Source: a virus. Taken from it: 35,829 bases of DNA. The notes below the pieces were generated by a model. That model was not told where the DNA came from. It saw only the letters and a program-made list of their open reading frames with translations, and ran no database searches. The position numbers were made by a program, and so were the translations under genes. The stretch spans positions 1 through 35,829 of IMG/VR virus record IMGVR_UViG_3300020062_000003, one strand, 5' to 3'. Shown piece by piece: positions 6,128 through 20,579 of the stretch; positions within the stretch are counted from its first letter, which is position 1; every line of letters starts with the position of its first letter.

Positions 6128-6514
6128 TTATTCTACCTCAGTAATTACTAACTCCGTTCTAGGTTCTTTATCATACACTTTTTTCATGGACAGTGAACAG
6201 ATTACGCGAATGTCTGTTATCAATATATCTTTAATAGCATCAAGGAAAAACTTGTAAAGACAGTCGAGGGATGGAGTTATAGTGTGATGAAGTGGAATTG
6301 GTTTATCTTTAACTTGTTTAGGGAAAGGTATATAGAATGTGACGTCAATGTGAATAGGTTTACTGAAAAGAGGTTCTTCATTATGTTGTTGACTGAGATA
6401 TAATCCAAAACAAACTTTATCTCGTGTATGTGCATCATAGGATCGACTTCCATTACGCACTACACGATGCCATGCTATTGGAGCTATTTTGATACGGTAT
6501 GACTTGCTTCTCAC
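6128..6514 (-). CDS. rusA: RusA-like Holliday junction resolvase (128 aa)
   Basis: Size, N-terminal IKIAPIAWHR...IHIDVTFYIPFP and C-terminal acidic motif SLDCLYKFFLDAIKD..ITDIRV resemble RusA (D.DN..K...DA....DD). The first Asp of the motif is not conserved. GTG start follows AGGGAGAG. Confidence 0.55.
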   Translation of the reverse strand: MRSKSYRIKIAPIAWHRVVRNGSRSYDAHTRDKVCFGLYLSQQHNEEPLFSKPIHIDVTFYIPFPKQVKDKPIPLHHTITPSLDCLYKFFLDAIKDILITDIRVICSLSMKKVYDKEPRTELVITEVE

Positions 6515-7544
6515 TACTACTCTCCCTTAGTAAATTAATTTTTTGCTTCAAACTATCAATAGTTCTTTTATCGAAAAGAGATCCACCATACATGGAAAAT
6601 CTTTCTTCTCTTTTAATCAGTTCTTTATTTAATTTAACAAGCTGATCATACGATGATAATTTTCGATTATTGTTTGGCGCATGGCATTGTCCTCGTTGCA
6701 CAGAGGATGACTCCTTGGCAGGCTTGATTGATATACCCAAAATATCACAAATATAATAATACCATTTCCAATCAGGCTTCATGTTGTTGTTAGCGCAATA
6801 TTGAGTAGCAAACAACAATATCCATTCCATTCTGTTAGGTGCATGGGGAACTTTCTTGCTGGCAATAGCATATTCTATCTCCTGCTGCACATGCTCAAGT
6901 GTTTCCTCAGTAAAAGCTACAAGTTTAAACCGTTCTTTTTCATCAAGGGTAAGAGTTTTAGCAATCTTTTCGATAGTGGGAGTGATAATTCGTTCCATTA
7001 TTTTTGGTGAATTTATAATTTCTTTAAGCTTGGGGTTATTACGCTGGTTCAAAATCATTTGTTTTTGAACGGCATTCATTTTTTCTCCTTTTTTTAGGAT
7101 CCTTTTTATTTTTTTTTGTATATTGTCTCGTGTGTGCGTGTAAGAGACATACACTCTTCTAAATAAACTATCTAAGATAAGATTACTCTTATTAGGGGTA
7201 TCATATTCTGACTGAAAGATTCTTTTGTTTTTATGATCAACTATCATTCCAAATGTATAGTTATTAGAAGTATATTGATTCTCTTGATATTTGGTTATAA
7301 AACCATCTTTCTGGAATTTATTAGTAGCACGAATTACGGTGATAACAGAACAGCCAACAGCATTAGCTATCCTCTTATTAGAAAGCTTTATCCATGGATA
7401 TCTTTGATAGTTACGAATGTATTGAGAAATTTTAAGTTGAGTTGCAGTATAATGATCAATCTGTGAATCTTTTTGGGAAAAGCTCTTAGTTAATAAGCTT
7501 TTATTTGTTTTTGATACTTGATTTATTCTATTGTTGTGATACAT
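6453..7544 (-). CDS. HTH/winged-helix protein (363 aa), candidate replication initiator or early regulator
   Basis: LSNKRIANAVGCSVITVIRATNKFQKDGFI looks like an HTH. The position upstream of rusA fits a phage replication module. No helicase or primase motifs seen. Overlaps the rusA start by 62 nt. Confidence 0.45.
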   Translation of the reverse strand: MYHNNRINQVSKTNKSLLTKSFSQKDSQIDHYTATQLKISQYIRNYQRYPWIKLSNKRIANAVGCSVITVIRATNKFQKDGFITKYQENQYTSNNYTFGMIVDHKNKRIFQSEYDTPNKSNLILDSLFRRVYVSYTHTRDNIQKKIKRILKKGEKMNAVQKQMILNQRNNPKLKEIINSPKIMERIITPTIEKIAKTLTLDEKERFKLVAFTEETLEHVQQEIEYAIASKKVPHAPNRMEWILLFATQYCANNNMKPDWKWYYYICDILGISIKPAKESSSVQRGQCHAPNNNRKLSSYDQLVKLNKELIKREERFSMYGGSLFDKRTIDSLKQKINLLRESSSEKQVIPYQNSSNSMASCSA

Positions 7545-7633
7545 TTATAATATGTTTCGGTTATTGGACATAAATTGTCATTGGTTGTGGTAGATTATTG
7601 ATGTTATGTTTCCTTTTATAAAAACTAAATGTA

Positions 7634-7655
7634 AGGACGGGTGTAAACTCGTCCT
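7634..7655 (-). terminator. Weak stem-loop after the 66-aa gene (possible leftward attenuator)
   Basis: aggacg (7634-7639) / cgtcct (7650-7655). On the minus strand it is followed by a moderately U-rich stretch. Confidence 0.3.
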
Positions 7656-7712
7656 ATATATTTAATCGTTAAATACTCGACGACTATATTCTATTAAATC
7701 CTAAATATTTGT

Positions 7713-7913
7713 CTACAGAAAAGTAAGTACCCATTCATTTTCAGCAAGTATTTCAGGAGCATTACTTTCAAAGTAAACTACTTCATTTTTTTCAACTAAT
7801 TTCCACATCGGTGCATCAGTATCGTAAGGTCCATGATCTTCGCAGCGATAAATAGATATACGTAGACCTCTTAGACAAGAATCCGCTAATTTATCACACT
7901 TATCACATTTCAT
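7713..7913 (-). CDS. Small Cys-rich protein (66 aa)
   Basis: ORF track. MKCDKCDKLADSC...CEDH pattern. Tightly abuts the ERF stop. Confidence 0.5.
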   Translation of the reverse strand: MKCDKCDKLADSCLRGLRISIYRCEDHGPYDTDAPMWKLVEKNEVVYFESNAPEILAENEWVLTFL

Positions 7914-7914
7914 A

Positions 7915-8535
7915 CTATTCTCTATTCTTTGCTATATACGATTTAACTGCCGCATAAGACGCAAATGGCAGATCAGCAAAAGACCGTATATTATAATCTT
8001 TAAGTATAGTGGCATAGAGTAATTTCCCATTAGCACATGCTTTTAGTTGTGTATGTAAATACTCAATTTCTTCTTTAACTAGTAAATCTGATTCTGGTTT
8101 ATTCTTTGCAATATACTTCTCTTCACCCTCACCATCATCATCTTCAGTAGCAATGGCACAAAGTGATAAGAGTGCATATTTCTTCATGTATGTATTAGCA
8201 GCACCTTTACCTTGATTACCTGGTTTCTCACTTTCAAGAACACGGCAATCTTCTATAAACTGTCCTGTTGTTGCATGAATCAAACGAGTATGGAGATATT
8301 CTATTCCATCTTCAGGTCGAGCAAAGTGCCATATGATAATATTATTCTTAGACAAAGCACCTTCAACTGCATGATAGATGTCTGCTATCTTTGCGTAGTT
8401 ATACTTCTGATGTGCATTAACTCCACCCAATCCTGTAGCTCTAAACTCATTCTTAGCTAATAAAAATGCTGATGCTAAAGCTCTTATATCTTCCGACATT
8501 GCTGGATTATAATTCTTCGTTGATACGTTTTCCAT
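7915..8535 (-). CDS. erf: ERF-family single-strand annealing protein (206 aa)
   Basis: KYNYAKIADIYHAVEGALSKNNI, H.TTGQ, GAANTYMKKYALLSLCAIATEDDDGEGE match the ERF core (Y.YA..., G.A.TY.rRY.l..l.gI..eDDD). Confidence 0.8.
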   Translation of the reverse strand: MENVSTKNYNPAMSEDIRALASAFLLAKNEFRATGLGGVNAHQKYNYAKIADIYHAVEGALSKNNIIIWHFARPEDGIEYLHTRLIHATTGQFIEDCRVLESEKPGNQGKGAANTYMKKYALLSLCAIATEDDDGEGEEKYIAKNKPESDLLVKEEIEYLHTQLKACANGKLLYATILKDYNIRSFADLPFASYAAVKSYIAKNRE

Positions 8536-8543
8536 AAAATCCT

Positions 8544-8753
8544 TTAGTCTTGTACACTCATATTATTATCTTCCCATTTCAAAACAAATGATCTTAGCTT
8601 TTGCATGGTGATTAACGAACATGTTTCAGGTTTCTTCATAATATTAGTAAATGTAAGCGGATGAATTCTACTCTCATGTGAAAAATCCAACCGGGACATG
8701 ATTCTTTTTATGCGTATTTTTTCAGCTCTTTGTACGTAATCTTTAACATCCAT
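8544..8753 (-). CDS. Cro/CI-type HTH regulator (69 aa), first gene of the leftward operon
   Basis: IRIKRIMSRLDFSHESRIHPLTFTNIMKKPETCSLITMQKL resembles an XRE-type HTH. It lies immediately downstream of the leftward promoter of the divergent switch. AAGGAA RBS. Confidence 0.5.
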   Translation of the reverse strand: MDVKDYVQRAEKIRIKRIMSRLDFSHESRIHPLTFTNIMKKPETCSLITMQKLRSFVLKWEDNNMSVQD

Positions 8754-8788
8754 ATATTTCCTTAATAATTATATCATCTATAGTTTAT

Positions 8789-8816
8789 AGTATATGTTAA
8801 ATATACATAATGTCAA
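8789..8816 (-). promoter_or_regulatory. Leftward sigma70-like promoter: TTGACA (8816-8811), N16, TATACT (8794-8789)
   Basis: Read on the minus strand. Perfect -35, 16-nt spacer, 5/6 -10. About 35 nt upstream of the HTH gene start. Confidence 0.55.
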
Positions 8817-8834
8817 CACACTGCATACTTACAG

Positions 8835-8862
8835 TTGACATAGTTATTAAACAATCTATACT
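8835..8862 (+). promoter_or_regulatory. Rightward sigma70-like promoter: TTGACA (8835-8840), N16, TATACT (8857-8862)
   Basis: Same hexamers and spacing as the leftward promoter. The two -35 boxes are 18 bp apart, back to back. A perfect TATAAT also occurs at 8875-8880. Confidence 0.55.
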
Positions 8863-8888
8863 TATCTTATAACTTATAATTTAAACCT

Positions 8889-8903
8889 GTGACATTTTGT
8901 CAC
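8889..8903. promoter_or_regulatory. 15-bp perfect palindrome GTGACA-ttt-TGTCAC (candidate operator)
   Basis: Read directly. It lies between the rightward promoter and the first rightward ORF. Confidence 0.4.
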
Positions 8904-8917
8904 GACTTGAGACAGGT

Positions 8918-9190
8918 ATGCAAAAAGAAATGACAATAAAAGAAATAGCAGCTCTTCTTCAAAAAAGAATCGATACCCGTATGGAATCTTTTATGGAATT
9001 ACATGATAAATTAAAGGCTATAACTATTGAAATTGAGAAATTAGAAAAGAAGATGGCTACAATAGTTATAGAACTGGAACCAGTTCAATCTTTAATCTAT
9101 AATCAAAACCCACAGTTAGAAAAAATATTTGAATCACTCAAACGTATTTATAAAGGAGAAGAGAATGGTATTGATAGAGAAGTTAACTAA
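8918..9190 (+). CDS. Coiled-coil protein (90 aa)
   Basis: ORF track 8897-9190 (TTG start). I prefer ATG 8918 (MQKEMTIKE). Heptad-rich sequence, no family recognised. Confidence 0.45.
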   Translation: MQKEMTIKEIAALLQKRIDTRMESFMELHDKLKAITIEIEKLEKKMATIVIELEPVQSLIYNQNPQLEKIFESLKRIYKGEENGIDREVN

Positions 9191-9482
9191 CGAATTAGAT
9201 GTTGAAATTACTCGTGTATGGCAAGAATATATAGATCTTCATGCTGAACTTGATAGTCATCGTGGCAAACCAATAGATGATACTAATTTAGATGAAATTA
9301 ATAGAATTCTAAAGGATATTCAGGAGAAGTTTGGTTTGCTATATCCAGCGTATCATTTCATAGCAACACGGCATCAATATGTTTCAAATGCTGTGACTGC
9401 TTATAATGAATTTATTGAAACTATTAAAAAATCTGGCGCTAAGCAAGATGAATCTGGTCCTTCAAAAATAATCACAGGTTAA
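9165..9482 (+). CDS. Hypothetical protein (105 aa)
   Basis: ORF track 9129-9482. Start moved to MVLIEKL (ATG 9165), which follows AAAGGAG. Confidence 0.45.
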   Translation: MVLIEKLTNELDVEITRVWQEYIDLHAELDSHRGKPIDDTNLDEINRILKDIQEKFGLLYPAYHFIATRHQYVSNAVTAYNEFIETIKKSGAKQDESGPSKIITG

Positions 9483-9483
9483 T

Positions 9484-10161
9484 ATGGAACAGAATAATAT
9501 TTACCGTTCAACTGACATTAATGAAATCATGGGTGCTTTGAGTAAAGCTCAGGGAAATTATAAACAACTCAAAGCAAACCAGGATGCCCCAGGAGGAAAG
9601 TTTGCTAACCTTCAAGCAATATTGGATGCCGTGAGAGAATCGTTGGCTAAAAATGGTTTAGGGTTCTTTCAGTTCATTGAATTATTAGATGAAGGTTCGG
9701 GTGCTGCACTCCTAAAAACAACTATAGGTCATGAGTCAGGTCAGTATATATCTTCATGTGCCCGGGTGGTCACTGGTAAAACTGAGCGTCAGACGGGTAA
9801 CATCTATGAGATTCATAAGCGCTTGCATGCTTTGATGTTGTTGGGTATTGCACCATCAGACAACGATCCTATTGCGTTTGATGACAATGGTGAAATAATA
9901 GCAGAACAACATCTCGTGGCTAGCTTAAGAAAGCCAGACTCTCCTAAGAAAGAAGAGATTGATCGCACTGATGTTATTAATAAGCATCAATATGATGAAC
10001 TACTTATTGAGCTTGAGGGGTTTGAGAAAATAGCTAAAGATATTATGGAAGTCTATGACATTCATACATTGGCAGATCTTCCTTCGTCTGAGTATCATAG
10101 AGCACGGGCTAAGATATTGAAAATCAAAAGGACACAAGAAGATTATTTAAGAAAAAAATAA
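9484..10161 (+). CDS. Second, diverged ERF-like protein (225 aa)
   Basis: Aligns by eye with the 206-aa ERF along its full length: GKFANLQAILDAVRESLAKNGL vs KYNYAKIADIYHAVEGALSKNNI; GHESGQYI vs ATTGQFI; ALMLLGIAPSDND vs ALLSLCAIATEDDD; C-terminal YDIHTLADLPSSEY vs YNIRSFADLPFASY. Confidence 0.6.
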   Translation: MEQNNIYRSTDINEIMGALSKAQGNYKQLKANQDAPGGKFANLQAILDAVRESLAKNGLGFFQFIELLDEGSGAALLKTTIGHESGQYISSCARVVTGKTERQTGNIYEIHKRLHALMLLGIAPSDNDPIAFDDNGEIIAEQHLVASLRKPDSPKKEEIDRTDVINKHQYDELLIELEGFEKIAKDIMEVYDIHTLADLPSSEYHRARAKILKIKRTQEDYLRKK

Positions 10162-10571: not shown

Positions 10572-10895
10572 TTAAACTTCTAACGTTTCTTCAAAAACTA
10601 ATGGCTCTTGAGGTAAATCTCTTGTAGCTCTATCTTGATAATTAGGTTGAGAGAAAACTAGTTTAGCATATTCATCAGGATCAGTTGGAATCATTTTAAC
10701 ACCATTTATTGCTAACTTTGAATCCCATTCATCTTTTAAACGCTTAAAGCATTGTTCATATTTATGCGTTAATACCCATTCAAGACGACGATTCATATCT
10801 TCATCAAATATATCTGCAGATACATCATTTTTAATAACTTGTTCTTGTGTATCTGAAAGAGTAAATATTTCTTTATCGTTTACTAATATTTTCAT
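10572..10895 (-). CDS. Hypothetical acidic protein (107 aa) downstream of the giant fibre; possible fibre assembly factor
   Basis: ORF track, AAGGA RBS. The functional suggestion rests on position only. Confidence 0.45.
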   Translation of the reverse strand: MKILVNDKEIFTLSDTQEQVIKNDVSADIFDEDMNRRLEWVLTHKYEQCFKRLKDEWDSKLAINGVKMIPTDPDEYAKLVFSQPNYQDRATRDLPQEPLVFEETLEV

Positions 10896-10914: not shown

Positions 10915-13900
10915 TTAAGATACTAAAGAACCACCAAAAAAGTTAACTATACCGGTAGTAGAAGGGGCAAATGGTCCCGTGGTAGTTCCATCAACCTGAA
11001 CATTTGCGGTCGCTGGCAATGATCCTGATTTTACTGTTACAAAAGCAGTATCACCTGCAGTCATATTAGTATAAATATCACTTCCTGTTTGACTATATTT
11101 TAAAGAAAAACCTGATATACCACTTGTAACTGGCGTATTTACAATTCTTGAAAATATTTTAGTGCTTGTAGTAAGTGTTACATAGGATGGATTTTGACTA
11201 CTACCATTAAAAAAAGTACCTTCACAAAACACGCCAAAAGCGAAATTGTATAATCCTGTAATAGGAGCAGTAAATACTGAAGTTCCAAGATTAAAATCTC
11301 CACCTAAATCAAATGGTTTAGTATCATAAATAATTTGATAAATAGTACCATCGCCCGTCGCACCGAAAACTGTAGTATTTAAATATGCAAAAAATGATGA
11401 TATACTGCCACCGCCACCACCACCACCTGTTCCAACTGTACCAAGCTGACCAACTGAATTCACAAAAACAGGTATACCATCGTTAATAGTTGGTGTTACA
11501 CCACGAATGCCGTGTATGAATGATTTATTAAGCTGACCATTTCCCGTACCCGTCCCAGAACCAATTCTAAGACTATTTGAGTTTCCTGTCGTTCCAGTAA
11601 CAGTGGCGCCAATAATTATATTATCGCTCTCACTTGATGTGAAGTTGTTACCTGAAGTTGTTCCAACAATCACATTGCGTTGACCAGTAGTCAATCCTGT
11701 TCCAGAACCTCTACCAACAATATTATTAGATATACCTGTTGTAAGAGCTGATGCGGATAATGATCCAACTACAACATTAGAAGATCCTGTCGTCATATTT
11801 GGTGCTGCAGATGTTCCATATATAGCATTAGCAGCCCCTGTAGTAATAGAATTAGCTGCAGACACTCCATATATAACATTAGAACCTCCTGTAGTAAACG
11901 CTGTCGCTGCATTTGCTCCATAAACAGAGTTATTGGATCCTGATAATGTTAAATTGCCAGCGTTCAAGCCCATAATAGTATTGTTACTACCGTCAGTTAC
12001 ATTGAATAGCACTATATTAGCAGAACCAGAAAATGATACTGTCGAACCGGCATGCTTTGTTGATTTGCTAGCTAAAATATTAATTATACCAGCAGAAGGT
12101 ATTGCGGTACCAGAATCAGTCGTAAATGATGAAGCAGATGAAAAACCACCAGCTGTTCCAAGTTGTCCACTTGAATCAATGAATACAGGAATAGCATCTG
12201 CAACGCCTGTTGTTATTCCACGTATACCAGCAACAAATGCTTTATTAAGCTGACCATTACCAGTACCTGTTGATAAACCAATTCTAAGAACATTTGATTC
12301 ACCAGTTACGCCGGTAACTGAATTTCCAATAACTATATTACGGCTTTCACTGGATGTGTAATTATTTCCTGTAACAGCTCCAAGAATAGTATTACGTTGA
12401 CCTGTAGTTAATGCAGCTCCTGATCCTCCACCCAAAATAGTATTTAATGTTCCTGTTGAAAGAACTCCTGCAGAAACTGATCCAAATATGGTATTAGATC
12501 CTCCAGTTGTAATAACTGGTGCAGATGTTGCTCCAAATACAGTATTAAATGTTCCTGATGACGCTGTATTACCAGCATTCAAACCCATGATAGTATTATT
12601 ACTAGCATCAGTTACATTGAACAATATTGTATTACCAGAAGTAGAAAATGATACCGTTGAACCGGCATGTTTTGCTGCTGTATTTGCTATTATATTAATT
12701 ATACCATTAGTAGGTGTAGCACCAGATCCTGTATCACCATCAAATGCTTCAGCAAGTTCAACACCTTCTGTAGTAAGTTGTCCATTCGAACTAATGAATA
12801 CAGGAATAGCATCATCAATATCTGGAATTATATTGAGAATTCCATGAATAAATGCTTTATTAAGTTGTCCATCTGCTAAGCCTGTAGATAATCCAATTCT
12901 TAAAGTATTCGAATCTCCTACAACACCTGGAGTTAAATTACCAATAATTATATTACTACTCTCGGTAGTAGTATAAGAATTTCCTGTAGTGGATCCTAAG
13001 AAAATATTATTAGTCCCATCGACTAATAAAGTTGCAGATCCTTGTCCAATAATTGTATTAGCTAATCCAGATGTGAGATTTAATGCTGAAGCAGATCCTA
13101 ATATAGTATTGTCTTCTCCTGTAATAAGATTCGCTGCAACAGATCCTCCAAATATAGAGTTTCCACTTCCAGTAGTAAGATTCAATGCAGATGCTTGTCC
13201 AAATATAGAGTTAATATTTCCCGTTGTAAGAGATATTAAAGAACTTCCTCCCACTACAGTATTATTTGTTCCTGTATATGCTAAATTACCACTATCTTCA
13301 CCAATAATAGTGTTACCATTAGTATCAGTTACATTAAGCAAAACTTCATTACCAGAAGCATCAAATGATACTGTTGCTCCGCAGTGAAGAGCTGCTGTAT
13401 CAGCTATAATTTCAATTACACCACCAGCAGGAGTTGCTGTTCCATCATCACCATCAAATACCGTTGTTCCGCCACCACCGCCTATTACAGATGCAGTGAG
13501 TGTGCTTGTTCCAGGAGATCCTACTATTGTTATAGTAGTGCCATCACCGACAATATTAACATTACCTAATGTTGGCCCAACTGGTCCACCACTATTACCA
13601 GTAACTGTATCAATTGTTGCACCACCAATACCAACTGTTCCAAGTTGACCATTAGAATCTATAAATACAGGAACGCCATTACCAGCTGCTGGAGTTATTC
13701 CACGAATACCTTGAATGAATGTTTTATTAATTTGCCCATTTCCTGCTCCCGTTGATAAACCAATTCTTAATGCATTTGATTCACCCAAAGTTCCAGTGAC
13801 TAAGTTACCAATAATTATATTGTTACTCTCGGTAGATGTGTAAGCATTTCCTGTAACAGATCCAACAATTAAATTACGGTTCCCTGTAGTTATTGAAATT

Positions 13901-15495
13901 CCCGAGCCTTCACCAATGATTGTATTAGCTAGCCCTGTTGTAATAAGTGATGCTGAGAATGATCCAAACACAGAGTTATTAGATCCAGTCGTAAGACCCC
14001 TTAAAGAAGTTGATCCACATACTGTATTAGCTAAAGCTACTCCTGGTGTATATGTTAAATTACCACTATCTGAACCGATAATGGTATTATCATCATCATC
14101 ACTTACGTCCAACGTAATAGTATTACTTGCGCCAGAAAATAAAACTGTTGCTCCTGCATTTAGTGATGCATTGTCAGCAATTATATTAAGAATACCAGCA
14201 GCTTCAGTTGCAGTTCCATCATCAGTAGGAAATGATTGTGCTCCAATTCCACCACCAACCAATGATACTGTCAAAGTACTTGTTCCAGGATTACCAGTTA
14301 CGGTAATAGTAGCTCCATCTCCAATTACATTAATATTACCAGCAGTACCAGAAACAGCACCACCAGTATTACCTGTCAATGTTGTTAGTAAACCACCAGC
14401 TCCAACAGTACCTAATTGACCACTAGAATCAATAAATACTGGAATGCCATCAGCAGCAGCTGGAGTTATTCCACGTATACCATGAATAAATGATGCATTA
14501 AGCTGTCCATTACCAGTACCGGTCGATACACCAATTCTAAGGGTATTTGATTCACCTAAAATGCCCCCTACTTGATTACCAATAACTATATTACTACTCT
14601 CAGCTCCAGTATAATTATTACCAGTAACAGCACCTATGATGACATTGCGTTGTCCGGTAGTTAATGAACTTGCAGAAGTTCCCCCAATAACAACATTAGA
14701 ACTTCCTGTTGTAAGAATTGGCGCAGATGTTGATCCTAATACAGTATTATTTGTTCCAGACAATGTTAGATTGCCACTATTTAGACCAATTATAGTATTA
14801 TCATCAGCATCAGTTACTTCTAATAAAACAGTATTACTAGTGCCAGAAAATAAGACAGATGATCCTGCTTGTAATGCTGCATTATCAGTAATTATATTAA
14901 GTACCCCACCAATGTCATTGGCAGTGCCATCATCGGTAGGAAAAGATGTTGCTCCTCCACCACCACCAATTACTGATGCAGTAAGAGTACTTGTTCCAGG
15001 GTTGCCTGCGATGGTTATTGTGGTCCCATCTCCAACAATATTTATGTTTCCTAGAGTTGGCCCAACTGGTCCACCACTATTACCGGTAACTTCTTGGACG
15101 ACATCACCAGGTCCACCAGTTGAATTGAGTGTTATAGTATTAGTCCCAGGATTGCCATCAAATGAAAACCCTACTATACCTGATACAAGATTTATATTAG
15201 CAAGACCATCAGGAGTAATTGCACCACCGCTATCACCTGTTAATGTGTCTAATGATCCTGAACTACTCTCTAGTTTTTGCCATGTAGCTAATGATCCCTT
15301 TGATACCATATCTCCCGCAAGAGAAACAAGTACCCAAACAGTTTCATTTGCTTCATTAAGCCACATATCTCCTATAGAGACATTTTGAATATCGAAGTCA
15401 TTTGGATCTCTATCGTTAAAGGTCCAGTTTGGTGGTTGATTAGCATTAGTTCCGGTATATGCGGTTCCTTGCTTTCCACCTAATCTATTACTCAT
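10915..15495 (-). CDS. Giant tail fibre (1526 aa): N-terminal anchor, five tandem fibre-shaft modules, C-terminal C1q/TNF-like domain
   Basis: Five copies of a module ending SES.NI.IGN...GESN.LRIG.STG.GNGQLNK.FI.GIRGI...IPVFIDS.GQLGT, with ends near aa 366, 625, 911, 1117 and 1363. AGGAG RBS. See findings. Confidence 0.85.
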   Translation of the reverse strand: MSNRLGGKQGTAYTGTNANQPPNWTFNDRDPNDFDIQNVSIGDMWLNEANETVWVLVSLAGDMVSKGSLATWQKLESSSGSLDTLTGDSGGAITPDGLANINLVSGIVGFSFDGNPGTNTITLNSTGGPGDVVQEVTGNSGGPVGPTLGNINIVGDGTTITIAGNPGTSTLTASVIGGGGGATSFPTDDGTANDIGGVLNIITDNAALQAGSSVLFSGTSNTVLLEVTDADDNTIIGLNSGNLTLSGTNNTVLGSTSAPILTTGSSNVVIGGTSASSLTTGQRNVIIGAVTGNNYTGAESSNIVIGNQVGGILGESNTLRIGVSTGTGNGQLNASFIHGIRGITPAAADGIPVFIDSSGQLGTVGAGGLLTTLTGNTGGAVSGTAGNINVIGDGATITVTGNPGTSTLTVSLVGGGIGAQSFPTDDGTATEAAGILNIIADNASLNAGATVLFSGASNTITLDVSDDDDNTIIGSDSGNLTYTPGVALANTVCGSTSLRGLTTGSNNSVFGSFSASLITTGLANTIIGEGSGISITTGNRNLIVGSVTGNAYTSTESNNIIIGNLVTGTLGESNALRIGLSTGAGNGQINKTFIQGIRGITPAAGNGVPVFIDSNGQLGTVGIGGATIDTVTGNSGGPVGPTLGNVNIVGDGTTITIVGSPGTSTLTASVIGGGGGTTVFDGDDGTATPAGGVIEIIADTAALHCGATVSFDASGNEVLLNVTDTNGNTIIGEDSGNLAYTGTNNTVVGGSSLISLTTGNINSIFGQASALNLTTGSGNSIFGGSVAANLITGEDNTILGSASALNLTSGLANTIIGQGSATLLVDGTNNIFLGSTTGNSYTTTESSNIIIGNLTPGVVGDSNTLRIGLSTGLADGQLNKAFIHGILNIIPDIDDAIPVFISSNGQLTTEGVELAEAFDGDTGSGATPTNGIINIIANTAAKHAGSTVSFSTSGNTILFNVTDASNNTIMGLNAGNTASSGTFNTVFGATSAPVITTGGSNTIFGSVSAGVLSTGTLNTILGGGSGAALTTGQRNTILGAVTGNNYTSSESRNIVIGNSVTGVTGESNVLRIGLSTGTGNGQLNKAFVAGIRGITTGVADAIPVFIDSSGQLGTAGGFSSASSFTTDSGTAIPSAGIINILASKSTKHAGSTVSFSGSANIVLFNVTDGSNNTIMGLNAGNLTLSGSNNSVYGANAATAFTTGGSNVIYGVSAANSITTGAANAIYGTSAAPNMTTGSSNVVVGSLSASALTTGISNNIVGRGSGTGLTTGQRNVIVGTTSGNNFTSSESDNIIIGATVTGTTGNSNSLRIGSGTGTGNGQLNKSFIHGIRGVTPTINDGIPVFVNSVGQLGTVGTGGGGGGGSISSFFAYLNTTVFGATGDGTIYQIIYDTKPFDLGGDFNLGTSVFTAPITGLYNFAFGVFCEGTFFNGSSQNPSYVTLTTSTKIFSRIVNTPVTSGISGFSLKYSQTGSDIYTNMTAGDTAFVTVKSGSLPATANVQVDGTTTGPFAPSTTGIVNFFGGSLVS
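10918..11406 (-). other. C1q/TNF-like globular head domain (aa 1364-1526 of the giant fibre)
   Basis: Y1390-x5-D-x4-F-x6-F-x5-G-x-Y-x-F-x5-C almost reproduces the C1q signature as I recall it: F-x5-[ND]-x4-[FYWL]-x6-F-x5-G-x-Y-x-F-x4-[CV]. Confidence 0.6.
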
Positions 15496-15528: not shown

Positions 15529-18500
15529 TTATAAACGAGCTTCTAAAGCAGCTATTCGTGAATTAAGTTTTTTAATTTCATTTAATAAAAGTGCAGGCAA
15601 TACATGGTACTGAACTGTTTCTATTTCACCATCTTTATTTCGTGCCACAATATCAGGGAATATTTCATTTACTTCTTCAGCAATGAGTCCATATTGTTTT
15701 TTTTCTGAAATATCACCGTTATATATAAACGTTACGGGACGTAAATTAAGAATTGATGATGACTCATCATTCATATCTTCAATATCATGCTTAAAACGCT
15801 TTGATGAAACAATAGTTCCAAGTAAACCTGCTGCACTAATTACTACAGGAACACCACCTGCCGCTGTTACACCAACAACACCTGTAGCAGTAATACCACC
15901 AGTTCCAGAATTCAGTGTTAGAGCAGATACTCCTGTAGTGCTACCAATAGCAATTGTTTTATCTTGTGCTCCTGTTCCTATAGTAATACCACCAGTACCT
16001 GATCTTATTGTTGTAATAGAAGTAGTATTAGTACTACCTAATGTAACTGTTTTAACGCCAGCACCTGTACCTATATCTACTGTACTTGCTGCAGCATTAG
16101 TTGATATAGCTATAGAACCTGTACCAGAATTTAAAGTAATAGTACCATTGCTAGGAGCAGCAGTAATATTGATACCATTAGAACCACCTTGAATTGTAGT
16201 ACTTGATGTAGTATTACTACTACCAATAGTAAGATTTTTTACACCAGCTCCATCAGCTATATCTATATTATTATTTGTAGCATCAGTTGCTATACTTATA
16301 TTTCCAGTACCAGAGTTTATAGTAATACCGCCAGATCCTGATTGAATAGCTGTTGTAGAAGTAGTATTAGTACTGCCAACTGTAACTGTTTTTAGACCAG
16401 CACCTGTACCTATATTAACCGTATTTGTAGTAGCATCAGTTGAAATACCCATGATACCAGTACCAGAATTTGCAGTAATAGGTCCATTAGTAGCTGTGAT
16501 AGAAATGCTACCACTAGCTCCAGTTTGAATAAGTACCGACGAAGTAGTAGTAGTACTACCAATAGTAACTGTTTTAGCTCCTGAACCCGTACCGATATTT
16601 AATGTAGTTGTTGTATTATCAGCAGATATACCTATAGTACCTATACCTGAGTTTACAGTAATACCACCACTTCCAGATTTAATAGCTGTTATAGAAGTAG
16701 TATTGGTGCTTCCTAATGTAACTGTTTTAACGCCAGCACCTGTACCAATGTTTATTGTATTTGCTGTAGCATCAGTTGATACTGATACAGTTCCAGTACC
16801 AGAATTGGCGGTTATAACACCATTTGTTGCTGTAATAGAAATACCAGAAGTTCCTGATTGAACAGTTGTAACTGATGTAGTTGTTACACTACCAAGAGTG
16901 ACTGTCTTAATTCCAGCCCCTGTACCAATATTTACCGTATTATTTGTAGCATCAGCTGATAATCCAAAAATACCTGTACCAGAATTTGCAGTAATAGGTC
17001 CATTAGTAGCTGTGATAGAAATACCGCCACTTCCCGACTGAAGTGTTGAAATTGAAGTAGTATTTGTACTACCAACAGTAACTGTTTTTACACCACCACC
17101 TGTACCCATATTTACCGTAGTTGCTGTATTATCAGCTGATATGCCTATGGTACCAGTACCTGAGTTTACAGTAATACCACCACTTCCAGATTTAATAGCT
17201 GTTATAGAAGTAGTATTAGTGCTTCCTAATGTAACTGTTTTAACGCCAGCACCTGTACCAATATTGACATTGTTTGCTGTAGCATCACTAGATATATTAA
17301 CATTAGAAGTTCCAGAATTCATGGTAATCACACCATTACCAGCAGTTATCGCAATTCCACCAGTTGCCGATTGAATCGTGGTTGAAGATGTATTACTAGT
17401 GCTACCTACTGTAACTGTTTTAGTACCAGCACCACTACCTACATTTACAGTGGTTGTTGTAGCATCAGCTGATATACCTAAAATACCCGTATTAGAATTG
17501 ATGGTCAGACCACCATCACCTGATCTTATTGTTGTGGTAGAACCAGTGGTAGTAGCTCCAATAGTAATTACTTTCCCACCACTACCAGTACCTATATTTA
17601 ATATAGTTGCTGTTGCATTTGCAGTAGCTATACTTATAGTTCCGGTACCAGATGTAATAGAAATAGGACCATTGTTAACTGAAGAATCAAGCTGTATACC
17701 TACAGATCCTGCTGTAATCGTTGTATTTGATGTAGTGTTATTACTTCCAATATTAACAGTTTTTGCTCCAGCTCCCGTACCTATATTAACAGTACTTGTT
17801 GTAGCATCGGTTGCCAAGGATACAGTTCCACCATTAGCAGTAATCCCCGCAAATGTTGTAGTAATTGTATTTGCTGCACCACCAAATGATAATCCCGTAG
17901 TACCACCAGCAAATGTAATTGCAGGGCCTGTTTGTGCTCCCCCAGTATTGCCAGTTATTGAAGTTATAGCACTAATGCTACCACCAGCGGTTCCAAGTTG
18001 ACCGGTAGAATCAATAAAAACAGGAATAGCATCTGCAACACCTGTTGTTATACCACGTATACCAGAAATAACAGCTTTATTAAGCTGATTAATTCCTGTT
18101 CCTGTACTATTACCAATTCGTAAAGTATTTGATTCGCCTACCGTACCTATAGTTTGAAAACCAATAAGTACATTACTACTTTCACTTGATATATAGCTAG
18201 CTCCTGCAGACTTTCCTATAAATATATTCCGTGAACCCGTAGTTAAACTTTGTCCTACTTGAGTGCCAAAAAAAACATTATCCTCACCTGATGAAAGTAC
18301 TATTGCATTATTTTCTCCTAATGCAGTATTACCTTGGCCTGATATTGTTAAGTTACCACTAGCCACACCAATAATAGTATTTAAGTTACCATCACTCACT
18401 TCAAATTGAATAGTATTACCACTACCAGAAAAAAATACTGATGATCCTGCTCCTAATCCTACTTGATTAGCTTTTATATTAATATTACCCATAGAAGGTG

Positions 18501-18747
18501 ATATTGCCCCACCATTGTCTCCTGTAAGTGTAGTTACAGCACCAATAGAAGCAATATCTTGAAAGCTTGGTAATCCACCAAAAGGGCCATTTGCTGTTAA
18601 TACTAAACCAGCGGTTACTAAAGAATCAACAAATTGAATAGGAGTTGTACTAAATATTCCACCACAAATAACGGCATATGGAGTCATCAATTGTGTCTGT
18701 GTACCACCTTCAACAATTGGTAAGGGAGATCGTTGCTTATATGACAT
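15529..18747 (-). CDS. Tail fibre (1072 aa) with one shaft module, a long beta-solenoid repeat region and a C-terminal S74 intramolecular chaperone domain
   Basis: C-terminus GLLGTIVSSKRFKHDIEDMNDESSSILNLRPVTFIY...YGLIAEEVNEIFPDIV...VQYHVLPALLLNEIKKLNSRIAALEARL is a classic peptidase S74 / endosialidase-type chaperone. Confidence 0.9.
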   Translation of the reverse strand: MSYKQRSPLPIVEGGTQTQLMTPYAVICGGIFSTTPIQFVDSLVTAGLVLTANGPFGGLPSFQDIASIGAVTTLTGDNGGAISPSMGNINIKANQVGLGAGSSVFFSGSGNTIQFEVSDGNLNTIIGVASGNLTISGQGNTALGENNAIVLSSGEDNVFFGTQVGQSLTTGSRNIFIGKSAGASYISSESSNVLIGFQTIGTVGESNTLRIGNSTGTGINQLNKAVISGIRGITTGVADAIPVFIDSTGQLGTAGGSISAITSITGNTGGAQTGPAITFAGGTTGLSFGGAANTITTTFAGITANGGTVSLATDATTSTVNIGTGAGAKTVNIGSNNTTSNTTITAGSVGIQLDSSVNNGPISITSGTGTISIATANATATILNIGTGSGGKVITIGATTTGSTTTIRSGDGGLTINSNTGILGISADATTTTVNVGSGAGTKTVTVGSTSNTSSTTIQSATGGIAITAGNGVITMNSGTSNVNISSDATANNVNIGTGAGVKTVTLGSTNTTSITAIKSGSGGITVNSGTGTIGISADNTATTVNMGTGGGVKTVTVGSTNTTSISTLQSGSGGISITATNGPITANSGTGIFGLSADATNNTVNIGTGAGIKTVTLGSVTTTSVTTVQSGTSGISITATNGVITANSGTGTVSVSTDATANTINIGTGAGVKTVTLGSTNTTSITAIKSGSGGITVNSGIGTIGISADNTTTTLNIGTGSGAKTVTIGSTTTTSSVLIQTGASGSISITATNGPITANSGTGIMGISTDATTNTVNIGTGAGLKTVTVGSTNTTSTTAIQSGSGGITINSGTGNISIATDATNNNIDIADGAGVKNLTIGSSNTTSSTTIQGGSNGINITAAPSNGTITLNSGTGSIAISTNAAASTVDIGTGAGVKTVTLGSTNTTSITTIRSGTGGITIGTGAQDKTIAIGSTTGVSALTLNSGTGGITATGVVGVTAAGGVPVVISAAGLLGTIVSSKRFKHDIEDMNDESSSILNLRPVTFIYNGDISEKKQYGLIAEEVNEIFPDIVARNKDGEIETVQYHVLPALLLNEIKKLNSRIAALEARL
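15532..15807 (-). other. Peptidase S74 intramolecular chaperone auto-processing domain (last 92 aa)
   Basis: SSKRFK..I.DM...L..L.pv.F.Y.......yGliAeEv.e..P..V motif string; the expected self-cleavage point is at the Ser-Ser. Confidence 0.85.
15930..17835 (-). repeat. In-frame coding repeat array (about 14-15 units of about 43-45 aa) with a superimposed 513-516-bp higher-order duplication
   Basis: Unit G(T/S)G.G.KTVT.GST.TTS.T.I.SG.GGI.I....G.I...SGTG...IS.DAT...VNI. Bases 16646-16749 and 17159-17262 are 103/104 identical. Bases 16462-16505 and 16978-17021 are also near-identical. Confidence 0.85.
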
Positions 18748-18758
18748 TTTTTTTCCTA

Positions 18759-19874
18759 TTAATATATTTCATATGATGATCCATTACCAATAATGGCAAC
18801 AGATTGATATTCTGAATCCATTACAAAAGTAGTAGAACCATCTATATTAACAACGCCACCAACTGTCGTGACAGTAATATTATTAGTATCAGCTGTTCCT
18901 GTTCTATCTTTTATTACAAATGTTCTACCAAGTGTTGCTGCATTAGGTAATTGAATTGTTATAGGAATAGCAGTAGAATCAACACTTAAATAGTCATCTG
19001 TAATAAGTACAACATAAGGTGATGTAGTAACATTTGTATATGCTAAGGTTACTGAACCAGAACTAGCTATAGTAATTAGATTTGCACCAGGAGTAATGGT
19101 AATACCAGTTCCTGCTGTAATAACAGCTGTTCCAAGTTGATTACCAACTTCTGTTACAACAGTAGCTGTTGATCCGACATTGATTCCATCAATACCACTA
19201 ATGAAAGCTTTATTAAGTTCTCCATCTGCTGTACCCGTTGCTACACCAATTCTGAGAACATTCGATTCACCTGTAACACCATCAATATCAGCGCCAATAA
19301 TTATATTGCTGCTTTCACTTGAAGTATAAAGTTCTGCCGTTCCACTTCCTATAATAGTATTTAAATTACCTGTTGTAATGTTTGGAGCAGCATCTCCACC
19401 TATGAATGTGTTTGAATTGCCAGTTGAAATGTTTATTGCTGAAGATGCTCCTAATACCGTATTTGATAATCCTGATATCGTAGGGTTTCCACTATCTTGA
19501 CCAATAATAGTGTTAATATTACTATCAGTTAAATTTAGAGTAATTATGTTTCCAATACCAGAAAACGCTACAGATGATCCTGAATTTTGATTTGCTACAT
19601 CAGTTATTATATTAATCACGCCTGCAATAGGAATTGCAACGTCACCATTATCTGTATGAAATTCTTCGACTACTGGTCCACCGCCAACTAATGAGATGGT
19701 AAGTGTATTAGTTACAGAGCTACCAGCTACTGTTATACCAACACCATCTCCAACAACGTTAATATTATTAGTACCATCAGGCCCAACTGGACCTCCGGAA
19801 TTACCTTTTAAGGTCTGAACTACACTTCCAGGTGGGAATGCTCCAGATGTGAAAAAATTTCCTGCTTGACTCAT
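18759..19874 (-). CDS. Tail fibre (371 aa): one shaft module plus a distinct C-terminal receptor-binding-type domain
   Basis: GNSGGPVGPDGTNNINVVGDG...SESSNIIIGADIDGVTGESNVLRIGVATGTADGELNKAFISGIDGI. C-terminus YLSVDSTAIPITIQLPNAATLGRTFVIKDRTGTADTNNITV...SYEIY is typical of phage fibre tips. Confidence 0.8.
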   Translation of the reverse strand: MSQAGNFFTSGAFPPGSVVQTLKGNSGGPVGPDGTNNINVVGDGVGITVAGSSVTNTLTISLVGGGPVVEEFHTDNGDVAIPIAGVINIITDVANQNSGSSVAFSGIGNIITLNLTDSNINTIIGQDSGNPTISGLSNTVLGASSAINISTGNSNTFIGGDAAPNITTGNLNTIIGSGTAELYTSSESSNIIIGADIDGVTGESNVLRIGVATGTADGELNKAFISGIDGINVGSTATVVTEVGNQLGTAVITAGTGITITPGANLITIASSGSVTLAYTNVTTSPYVVLITDDYLSVDSTAIPITIQLPNAATLGRTFVIKDRTGTADTNNITVTTVGGVVNIDGSTTFVMDSEYQSVAIIGNGSSYEIY

Positions 19875-19886
19875 TACTTTCTCCTT

Positions 19887-20240
19887 TTATACCTGAGAAG
19901 CATACACTACAGTTACATAGAGGTTTCCTGATATAGGTAAAGTATTTTCTGCTTTTACATAGATCCTATCCCCTTGAGGTTGCTCAAGAAGACCTGCTGC
20001 GTTTGCTTTATTAGAAGCATAGTCATATAAAAAGAATCCATTTGCAGCTACTATATCATGATCATCAATACCATTAAGAGATACAAGAATATTAGCACTA
20101 GTGAGATTGGTAACTTTTAATATTCTTACGGGATTTTCAAAAGGTAAGCCAACTCCTGCATAGACCGCTGATATTCCTGCAAATCCAACACTACGTAAAG
20201 GTTCATACCTAACTCGAACCGAACTAACTAAATTACTCAT
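19887..20240 (-). CDS. Small beta-rich protein (117 aa), paralog of the next gene
   Basis: Shares S.[ND]GI[DN]DH[DE]IV and a C-terminal ..Y......GN.......Y. with the 109-aa protein. AAGGAG RBS. Confidence 0.55.
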   Translation of the reverse strand: MSNLVSSVRVRYEPLRSVGFAGISAVYAGVGLPFENPVRILKVTNLTSANILVSLNGIDDHDIVAANGFFLYDYASNKANAAGLLEQPQGDRIYVKAENTLPISGNLYVTVVYASQV

Positions 20241-20249
20241 TCTATCTCC

Positions 20250-20579
20250 TTAGACGTAATATCCAGAAAGCGTTATATTACCTGTTCCTGCCGTACCTCT
20301 TGCGTATACTACAGTATGTTTAGGAAATAAAGCTACTTTAGCATTTGGTTGAGCATTAGCTTGTGAAGGAAAATCAAATGCTGAGTTTATTAACACAATT
20401 TCATGATCATTAATGCCATCATAACTAATAACTACTATTTGAGTACTACCATTGGCAATGCGAATAAAAAAAGGTGCTTCCTCAAAACCATTTGGATTAA
20501 TAGCTTGATAAGTATTTAATATCAATGTTGATGATAATATCGTGGTAAGCTGAAATGGTTTTACTGAATTTTGTGCCAT
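20250..20579 (-). CDS. Small beta-rich protein (109 aa), paralog of the 117-aa protein
   Basis: ISYDGINDHEIVLIN vs VSLNGIDDHDIVAAN. Located between fibre genes. Confidence 0.55.
   Translation of the reverse strand: MAQNSVKPFQLTTILSSTLILNTYQAINPNGFEEAPFFIRIANGSTQIVVISYDGINDHEIVLINSAFDFPSQANAQPNAKVALFPKHTVVYARGTAGTGNITLSGYYV

Follow-up and report, generated by a model that had tools for sequence, protein, structure and literature searches.

In the adenovirus fibre shaft and in gp34/gp37 of phage T4, length follows the number of repeats. Bacillus BclA combines a collagen-like stalk with a C1q-like C-terminal domain. In endosialidase-type chaperones, the cleavage by the peptidase S74 domain (S74) is intramolecular and depends on a chaperone fold directly downstream. 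Auto-chaperones of this type have been discussed earlier (PMC3357383). C1q-like domains constitute putative receptor-binding domains in variable host-recognition regions of environmental phages (PMC7468147), and they are also reported on fibres of extracellular contractile injection systems (eCIS) (PMC12923769). Trimeric autotransporter adhesins (TAAs) contain head and connector or neck blocks that are modular, highly repetitive, mosaic and sometimes alternating, while the YadA-type C-terminal beta-barrel membrane anchor is the sole domain homologous in all of them (PMC2373917). The stretch of DNA analysed here (the window; 35,829 nucleotides, positions 1 to 35,829 of the IMG/VR virus record IMGVR_UViG_3300020062_000003) is essentially the whole genome of a ~36-kb tailed phage and encodes a giant fibre of 1526 amino acids (aa). 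Its architecture is that of a modular phage fibre, presumably trimeric, with a TAA-like head and neck logic and a C1q tip; the underlying cassette design is common, though undescribed and not covered by the domain databases. The uncultured phage is likely to carry the protein as a single, segmented and homotrimeric tail fibre, in which stacked cassettes would set the reach, and not as five fused fibres. The gene and the parts of its product are as follows.

10915..15495, minus strand: fibre gene, complete, 1526 aa (149.3 kDa, pI 4.06)
15247..15495, minus strand: N-terminal region, aa 1-83; unique, non-repeated, presumed virion-attachment anchor
14407..15246, minus strand: Module 1 (M1), aa 84-363; two 'A' elements, B, 17-aa repeats, neck
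13636..14406, minus strand: Module 2 (M2), aa 364-620; one 'A' element, B, repeats, neck
12769..13635, minus strand: Module 3 (M3), aa 621-909; one 'A' element, longest repeat run, neck ending in GQLTT
12154..12768, minus strand: Module 4 (M4), aa 910-1114; no 'A' element, minimal module, used for structure prediction
11437..12153, minus strand: Module 5 (M5), aa 1115-1353; no 'A' element
11407..11436, minus strand: linker VGTGGGGGGG, aa 1354-1363; Gly-rich, with a seven-Gly run
10918..11406, minus strand: gC1q (C1q/TNF-like jelly-roll) domain, aa 1364-1526; assigned by profile, AlphaFold2 (AF2) and Foldseek

The open reading frame (ORF) is uninterrupted over 4.6 kb, with an ATG start and a uniform composition, and its product is rich in Gly, Thr and Ser. 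The non-repeated parts comprise one N-terminus (aa 1-83, to which the four Trp residues are confined) and one C-terminus (aa 1364-1526). An earlier note, made from the sequence alone, had described five consecutive copies of one module at nt 15246-11407, which corresponds to aa 84-1363, and this description holds. All ten pairwise BLASTP comparisons of the modules (composition-based statistics on, segments cut at the borders of that note) give 48-61% identity over 200-290 aa (E 1e-61 to 1e-97); judged from these alignments, the likeness exceeds by far what chance would give, even in a protein so rich in G, T, and S. A hidden Markov model (HMM) built on the conserved last 80 aa of the module matches the protein exactly five times, with ends at aa 363, 620, 909, 1114, and 1353, i.e., 2-10 aa before those proposed earlier, and with module lengths from M1 to M5 of 280, 257, 289, 205, and 239 aa. 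A self-BLAST of the whole protein returned the identity high-scoring segment pair alone, and module-versus-module BLAST was used instead. The copies are diverged at 60-75% DNA identity, with a 51-nt (17-aa) sub-period, and a simple assembly stutter is thus excluded, as had been argued in the earlier note.

An alignment of the seven modules of the window, two of which belong to neighbouring fibres, reveals a four-part anatomy: an optional 'A' element, a 'B' element, a run of 17-residue repeats, and a 'neck'. The A element (~50 aa, TLTGNSGGPVGP..GNINIVGDG..ITI.GNPGT.TLT.S..GGG) is present twice in M1, once in M2, once in M3, and is absent from M4 and M5. The B element reads F.TD.GTA.P..G.INII....AGS.V.FSGSGN....V.D..NTIIG..SGN. 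The repeat unit, N-x-h-h-G-x-x-S/A-x-x-x-L-T-T-G-x-x, has an invariant N and G at a strict 17-aa spacing and forms ~6 to 9 in-register turns per module, the length differences among modules being indels of whole 17-aa repeats. The neck (~60 aa, ESSNIIIGN..G..GESN.LRIG.STG.GNGQLNK.FI.GIRGI....IPVFIDS.GQLGT) is highly conserved and is followed by Gly-rich, poorly conserved junctions (VGAGG, VGIGG, EGVEL, AGGFS, and VGTGGGGGGG). The start and end motifs quoted in the earlier note are present in this alignment; the C1q domain in the C-terminal 163 aa, the lack of the A element in M4 and M5, and the strictness of the 17-residue period had been overlooked.

This anatomy is close in several respects to that of TAAs (YadA, BoaA, UspA1, BpaC, and the BadA/SadA type), and some relatives are labelled 'trimeric autotransporter adhesin' or 'YadA-like head' by JGI/UniProt. 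Both are long fibres of short repeats in which an invariant Gly ends a hydrophobic inner strand (NSVAIG-S in TAAs, N-x-h-h-G-x-x-S/A in the phage cassette), in both a conserved connector resembling a neck follows the repeats, and both use their blocks in a modular way. This repeat logic and block use are the reason why the module is described here as working like a head-plus-neck unit. Unlike in TAAs, however, the membrane anchor is absent, no signal peptide is evident, and the gene lies in a phage structural operon; the repeat period is 17 instead of 14 residues, the neck is not succeeded by a coiled-coil stalk, and the C-terminus is a C1q knob. Moreover, neither Hep_Hag, HIM nor YadA_anchor is matched in Pfam, and the fold match in the PDB is not significant. 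Membership of the 1526-aa fibre in the TAAs was rejected because of the absent anchor and the absent Hep_Hag and HIM signatures.

The five-module layout is kept in an ortholog. The protein itself (P0001) occurs unchanged on a contig of ~35.8 kb in assemblies from JGI, Logan, and ENA, records that may share one sample and are therefore not strong independent evidence. A 1496-aa ortholog (P0002), 66% identical, is encoded on an independent syntenic contig of 36,035 bp from a different run. It contains five modules (282, 254, 289, 204, and 222 aa), each of which finds its best match in the equally placed module of the 1526-aa fibre, and this 1:1 positional orthology means that the five-module layout is older than the split of the two phages and has been maintained since. 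Identity falls from the N-terminus (81%) through M1 (79%), M2 (73%), M3 (63%), M4 (68%), and M5 (59%) to the linker and C1q domain (43%), which, as a sequence pattern, is typical of fibres with a conserved anchor and a variable receptor-binding tip. In relatives with three modules, the N-terminus and M1 are 58-63% conserved, while M4 and M5, the modules lacking the A element, have no clear counterpart; the expansion to five is therefore specific to the lineage of P0001 and P0002.

According to both sequence homology and the predicted jelly-roll fold, the C-terminal 163 aa form a genuine gC1q domain. The single sequence matches C1q in Pfam below the cut-off (13.3 vs 23.7 bits), this weak match being the only one in a Pfam scan of the whole 1526-aa protein at E<=0.1, and its PDB matches are weak as well. 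A profile of 34 family C-termini finds cerebellin-1 (E 6.5e-13) and a single-chain C1q A-C-B construct (1.5e-19), as well as C1q, adiponectin, EMILIN-1, C1QL proteins, and collagen VIII/X NC1. The AF2 model of the domain comprises ten strands (predicted local distance difference test, pLDDT, 86.6; predicted template modelling score, pTM, 0.85), and Foldseek relates it to the C1q domain of Caprin-2 (E 2.8e-10, target TM 0.82) and to a total of 346 PDB entries at E<=1e-3, mainly C1q/TNF proteins. PF00386 is precomputed for many relatives, and PF18573 (BclA_C) for one. As gC1q domains are obligate trimers, the domain fits a homotrimeric fibre, in which the knob is presumed, by analogy, to be the trimerisation and registration nucleus and the receptor-binding tip. 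A gC1q/TNF-like jelly-roll ending an elongated repetitive trimer is what the fibre, if trimeric, would share with C1q-tipped phage receptor-binding proteins, eBAP2 of eCIS, and Bacillus BclA; unlike in those systems, the shaft consists of 17-residue-repeat cassettes and necks, and not of collagen triplets or an intertwined beta-sheet. At the position of the linker between the last neck and the C1q domain, most relatives carry a full A element (TLTGNSGG…GNPGTSTLTIS).

Relatives of the module are abundant in metagenomes. A search with the whole protein found 98 relatives, mostly on 30-38-kb contigs and many of them C1q-tipped. A profile of the seven modules, searched against 1.84 billion representative proteins, matches 28,722 of them at E<=1e-3 and 1,277 at E<=1e-30 (~29,000 clusters at 50% identity), and module relatives are encoded by at least 252 stretches of viral contigs in IMG/VR, which are for the most part 30-42 kb long. 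The 1526-aa fibre tops the ranking by the profile with 1,724 bits (next, 1,091), a rank that is biased by the profile having been built from it. The cassettes belong to an unnamed metagenomic family with a head and a GQLGT neck (neck consensus ESxNIxIG...SNxLRIG...QLNKxFIxGIxG...PVxIDSxGQLGT), all five modules of the fibre matching it in the B element, the 17-aa N-x-x-x-G repeats, and the neck. Among 233 relatives, chosen as top scorers, the number of near-complete necks per protein is zero in 19, one in 53, two in 65, three in 71, four in 18, and five in seven, five being the maximum seen. Five-module fibres are present in several lineages with differing tips, including S74 tips (P0101, P0133, and P0144). 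Thus, as far as sequence comparison goes, the five-module fibre is not unique; it stands at the long end of a common cassette design in which 2-5 modules are stacked. In some relatives, adjacent modules are almost the same: those of P0036 recur at intervals of exactly 209-211 aa, with 79-88% identity from one to the next, and those of P0007 share 69-76% with their neighbours, so that cassette amplification appears to be ongoing in the family. The suggestion of the earlier note that such a fibre is unusually long and segmented, built from five diverged copies of one module, is supported, while its remark that no fibre of this kind has been described requires a distinction. No paper on the cassette or its concatenation was found in the literature, where C1q tips and general fibre modularity are reported, and neither Pfam, NCBIfam nor the PDB covers the module; on the other hand, fibres with 2-5 modules are common in metagenomic relatives, and alternating head and neck blocks are textbook for TAAs (PMC2373917). 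A tblastn search of 50,697 GenBank phage records returned two weak matches (26-33% identity) for the whole protein and none for M4, i.e., no cultured relative.

The sequence that follows a neck is informative about its role. The 233 relatives contain 503 necks. A further module comes next in 289 cases, and in 93 the neck runs immediately into an S74 junction (GQLGT-xx-SS[RK]x.K..IEDM...); the others precede either a tip of 130-260 aa (74 cases, mostly C1q, with or without an A element before it) or other C-terminal domains (47 cases). This distribution indicates a general joint and not primarily a terminus. The earlier note was right that the module end is the element directly before the S74 cleavage region, as in these 93 cases, but the end leads into a further module more often than into a terminus. 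Such a junction is also present in the window: the 1072-aa fibre encoded next to the giant one contains a related string directly before its S74 region (PVVISAAGLLGT and then SSKRFKHDIEDM, followed by the Peptidase_S74 match), as had been noticed earlier. In this direct contact between neck and S74 junction, the family resembles the S74 fibres and spikes of phages and giant viruses (endosialidase K1F type), and the best match of the module in BFVD is an S74-bearing protein of an uncultured phage, 38% identical. Unlike those fibres, the 1526-aa protein is devoid of S74, and its trimerising end would be a retained C1q knob and not a released chaperone. The interpretation of the protein as five complete shafts fused into one is not supported, in view of its single presumed N-terminal anchor and single C-terminal tip and of the mostly internal module ends in the family; the module is better regarded as a stackable shaft segment than as a complete fibre.

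No Pfam, NCBIfam or PDB sequence match was found for the module with the whole protein, 34 single modules, or profiles of 7 and 34 sequences, and the search of the PDB with the module profiles remained without a match at E<=10. The PHROG matches on the repeat region are 'tail spike' and 'virion structural protein'. M4 was modelled with AF2 as a monomer from an alignment of the 34 module sequences, with an overall pLDDT of 71.8, a pTM of 0.67, and a pLDDT of 80-93 in the 17-aa repeats. For the repeat run, the prediction is a beta-solenoid. Closest to it in fold are YadA-like heads (BoaA 3s6l, CbpF, UspA1, and YadA 1p9h), which lead the Foldseek matches in the PDB, below significance, and are followed by left-handed beta-helix enzymes; the head fold characteristic of TAAs is a left-handed parallel beta-roll. 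Significant matches of the M4 model in BFVD are the above-mentioned uncultured-phage protein, annotated 'intramolecular chaperone auto-processing domain' (E 8.5e-8), and a 'trimeric autotransporter adhesin YadA-like head domain-containing' protein (E 2.4e-7); they also include S74 proteins of giant viruses and a protein named 'Chlorovirus glycoprotein repeat'.

A possible mode of action can be proposed from this architecture. The unique 83-aa N-terminus would dock the fibre on the virion. Five stackable shaft cassettes come next, each presumably a rigid solenoid 'head' with a neck segment. The 17-residue N-x-h-h-G turns of the head might work like a YadA-type head, the neck ending in IPVFIDSxGQLGT might be a universal joint that takes a further cassette, an S74 intramolecular chaperone, a C1q domain or another tip, and the Gly-rich junctions might act as hinges. 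The Gly-rich linker would lead to a trimeric gC1q knob that keeps the three chains in register and attaches to the host receptor. Cassettes are frequently gained, lost, and amplified in relatives, by recombination according to this proposal, and their number would determine how long the fibre is and perhaps how many weak binding surfaces it has; as a rough estimate, five cassettes could span ~35-50 nm at a YadA-like rise per turn. By analogy, the fibre would share its layout with the adenovirus and T4 fibres: an anchor at the N-terminus, a shaft with a variable number of repeats and, at the C-terminus, a trimeric knob from which folding starts and which attaches to the receptor. Unlike there, the unit is a composite cassette of 205-289 aa with internal repeats and not a ~15-aa beta-spiral, and no sequence or Pfam relationship to these fibres was found.

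Some observations weigh against a single trimeric fibre made of solenoid heads and necks whose number is selected for reach. None of the 34 single modules matches Hep_Hag (PF05658) or YadA_head in Pfam at E<=1, and the best structural match of M4 in the PDB is not significant (E 0.17, TM 0.34). In the M4 model, the neck and the A/B elements are of low confidence (pLDDT 44-65), which leaves the solenoid-plus-neck picture partly supported only; low confidence of the neck in a monomer would, however, fit an inter-chain structure. The monomer model is equally compatible with three separate solenoids and with an intertwined triple beta-helix. Length tuning as a selected function is suggested by copy-number variation among sequences, and the distribution of copy numbers is biased upwards, as a sample of top scorers favours multi-copy proteins. 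Finally, the conservation pattern between P0001 and P0002, with necks 80-92% identical and some head stretches (aa ~461-480, 741-780, and 1181-1240) only 28-45%, could mean that the heads bind ligands.

The last point leads to the possibility that the protein is a multivalent adhesin, in which each of the five heads binds a ligand (five times three sites plus the C1q tip) and avidity, or the use of several receptors, has been selected. This explanation is rather improbable, although it overlaps with that of a segmented fibre, the difference lying in what is selected. Divergent heads between conserved necks are expected of diversifying binding surfaces, every module keeps its position-specific identity across both phages, and the YadA-like heads that form the nearest fold class are adhesion domains (PMC2373917). 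However, Pfam and NCBIfam searches revealed neither a ligand-binding motif nor a lectin-like family in the modules, the low-identity stretches coincide with indel-prone 17-aa runs, for which relaxed constraint is an equally good explanation, and divergence is steepest not in the heads but at the C1q tip (43%), the classical site of specificity.

The two remaining explanations concern the integrity of the protein and of its gene. The earlier note had considered a polyprotein, cleaved after each GQLGT into five separate short fibres or segments, and the 1072-aa fibre and relatives lend this some plausibility, as in them GQLGT or LLGT immediately precedes the autoproteolytic S74 chaperone and the mature fibre ends there. 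Nevertheless, such processing is very improbable for the 1526-aa protein: scans with Pfam, PHROG, and NCBIfam reveal neither S74 nor another peptidase domain in it, the Gly-rich residues after its five GQLGT sites are unconserved and devoid of the SS[RK]x.K..IEDM junction, and S74 cutting is intramolecular and needs the chaperone fold directly downstream. Cleaved internal segments would possess neither anchor nor trimerisation tip, and the majority of module ends in relatives (289/503) are internal. An assembly artefact, by which the long ORF would be a chimera or a repeat-collapse or repeat-expansion product of separate fibre genes, might be suspected from a repeat-bearing gene in short-read metagenomes whose three identical-protein records perhaps derive from one sample. 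This is the hardest explanation to maintain, as the modules are too diverged in DNA for mis-joining, the frame is open over its 4.6 kb with uniform composition, the 66%-identical ortholog from an independent sample has five modules in equal order within an equal gene neighbourhood, and 4-5 modules are also present in several other lineages.

If the protein is a single segmented fibre, it constitutes a clean example of fibre lengthening by stacking a self-contained shaft cassette whose joint takes different tips. A broader generalization is tentative and rather doubtful as a whole: the cassette may be an uncatalogued, very widespread building block of trimeric virus fibres, with the neck as a plug-in joint, copy number as an evolvable 'ruler', and perhaps a true kinship with TAA heads and necks. 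Should this kinship be true, a common set of modular parts would connect phage fibres with TAAs; should the joint be truly interchangeable, it would offer a natural splice point for engineering receptor-binding proteins of chosen length and tip. As the family is large and lies outside the coverage of domain and structure databases, solving the structure of the cassette as a trimer would annotate many thousand metagenomic virion proteins, and it would also test a possible relationship to bacterial TAA heads and necks. Speculatively, a five-segment fibre with chains of ~150 kDa suggests a host with a thick surface layer.

The closest relatives in genome bins are found in metagenome-assembled genomes (MAGs) of Bacteroidota (Cyclobacteriaceae, with 49% identity, Saprospiraceae, and Spirosoma) and of Dependentiae/Babeliaceae. 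The chromosome of a Candidatus Babeliaceae MAG (OY969927.1) has three separate loci (L005, L011, and L014) with module relatives of 38-41% identity. Some matches to the 17-aa-repeat part occur within giant proteins, in which 7-22 stretches match: P0109 (7103 aa), P0192 (3927 aa), P0132 (3047 aa), and P0171 (2409 aa).

The genome encodes TerL, a P22-like portal, a major head protein, Erf-like annealing proteins, and RusA, while its tail-protein matches are weak. The TerL, portal, head, and tail-protein matches share their strand with the fibre gene, and two adjacent fibre genes share the module, which occurs once in each of them, as comparison and alignment confirm for the single copies reported in the earlier note. 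Their features are as follows.

15529..18747, minus strand: 1072-aa fibre; one module (nt 17989-18540), an own tandem-repeat shaft, C-terminal Peptidase_S74
15646..15807, minus strand: Peptidase_S74 of the 1072-aa fibre, aa 981-1034; Pfam, E 2e-11
18759..19874, minus strand: 371-aa fibre; one module (nt 19128-19826), a different C-terminal domain

The shaft of the 1072-aa fibre (15980-17830, minus strand) comprises ~ten copies of an unrelated unit of 51-62 aa (…SGTG.I.IS.DAT...VNIGTGAG.KTVT.GS.NTTS.T.I.SG..GI.I…), which follow one another at 153 nt and at 180-186 nt in turn, so that a double unit measures 336 nt, with a DNA identity of 65-87%. In the syntenic relative L002, the ortholog of the 371-aa fibre (6572-8245) has 557 aa and two modules, and that of the 1072-aa fibre (8255-9967) has 570 aa, no module, and a much shorter repeat shaft. 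The module total is seven in both genomes, namely 1+1+5 in the window and 2+0+5 in L002.

Just upstream of the three fibre genes lie two adjacent ORFs of 117 and 109 aa (19887-20240 and 20250-20579, both on the minus strand), for which a PHROG search gave no match. A (F/L).G I.DH(E/D).V..NG.F motif is common to the counterparts in L002 (108 and 117 aa), which look mutually paralogous; these ORFs may encode fibre adaptors or baseplate parts. Directly downstream of the 1526-aa fibre gene, an acidic ORF of 107 aa (10572-10895, minus strand) is without a PHROG or NCBIfam match and is kept in L002 (105 aa); its position would suit a candidate fibre assembly factor. Between the packaging and the fibre genes, the window contains two Erf-like single-strand annealing genes on opposite strands (7915-8535, minus; 9484-10161, plus) and a RusA resolvase ORF (6128-6514, minus strand).

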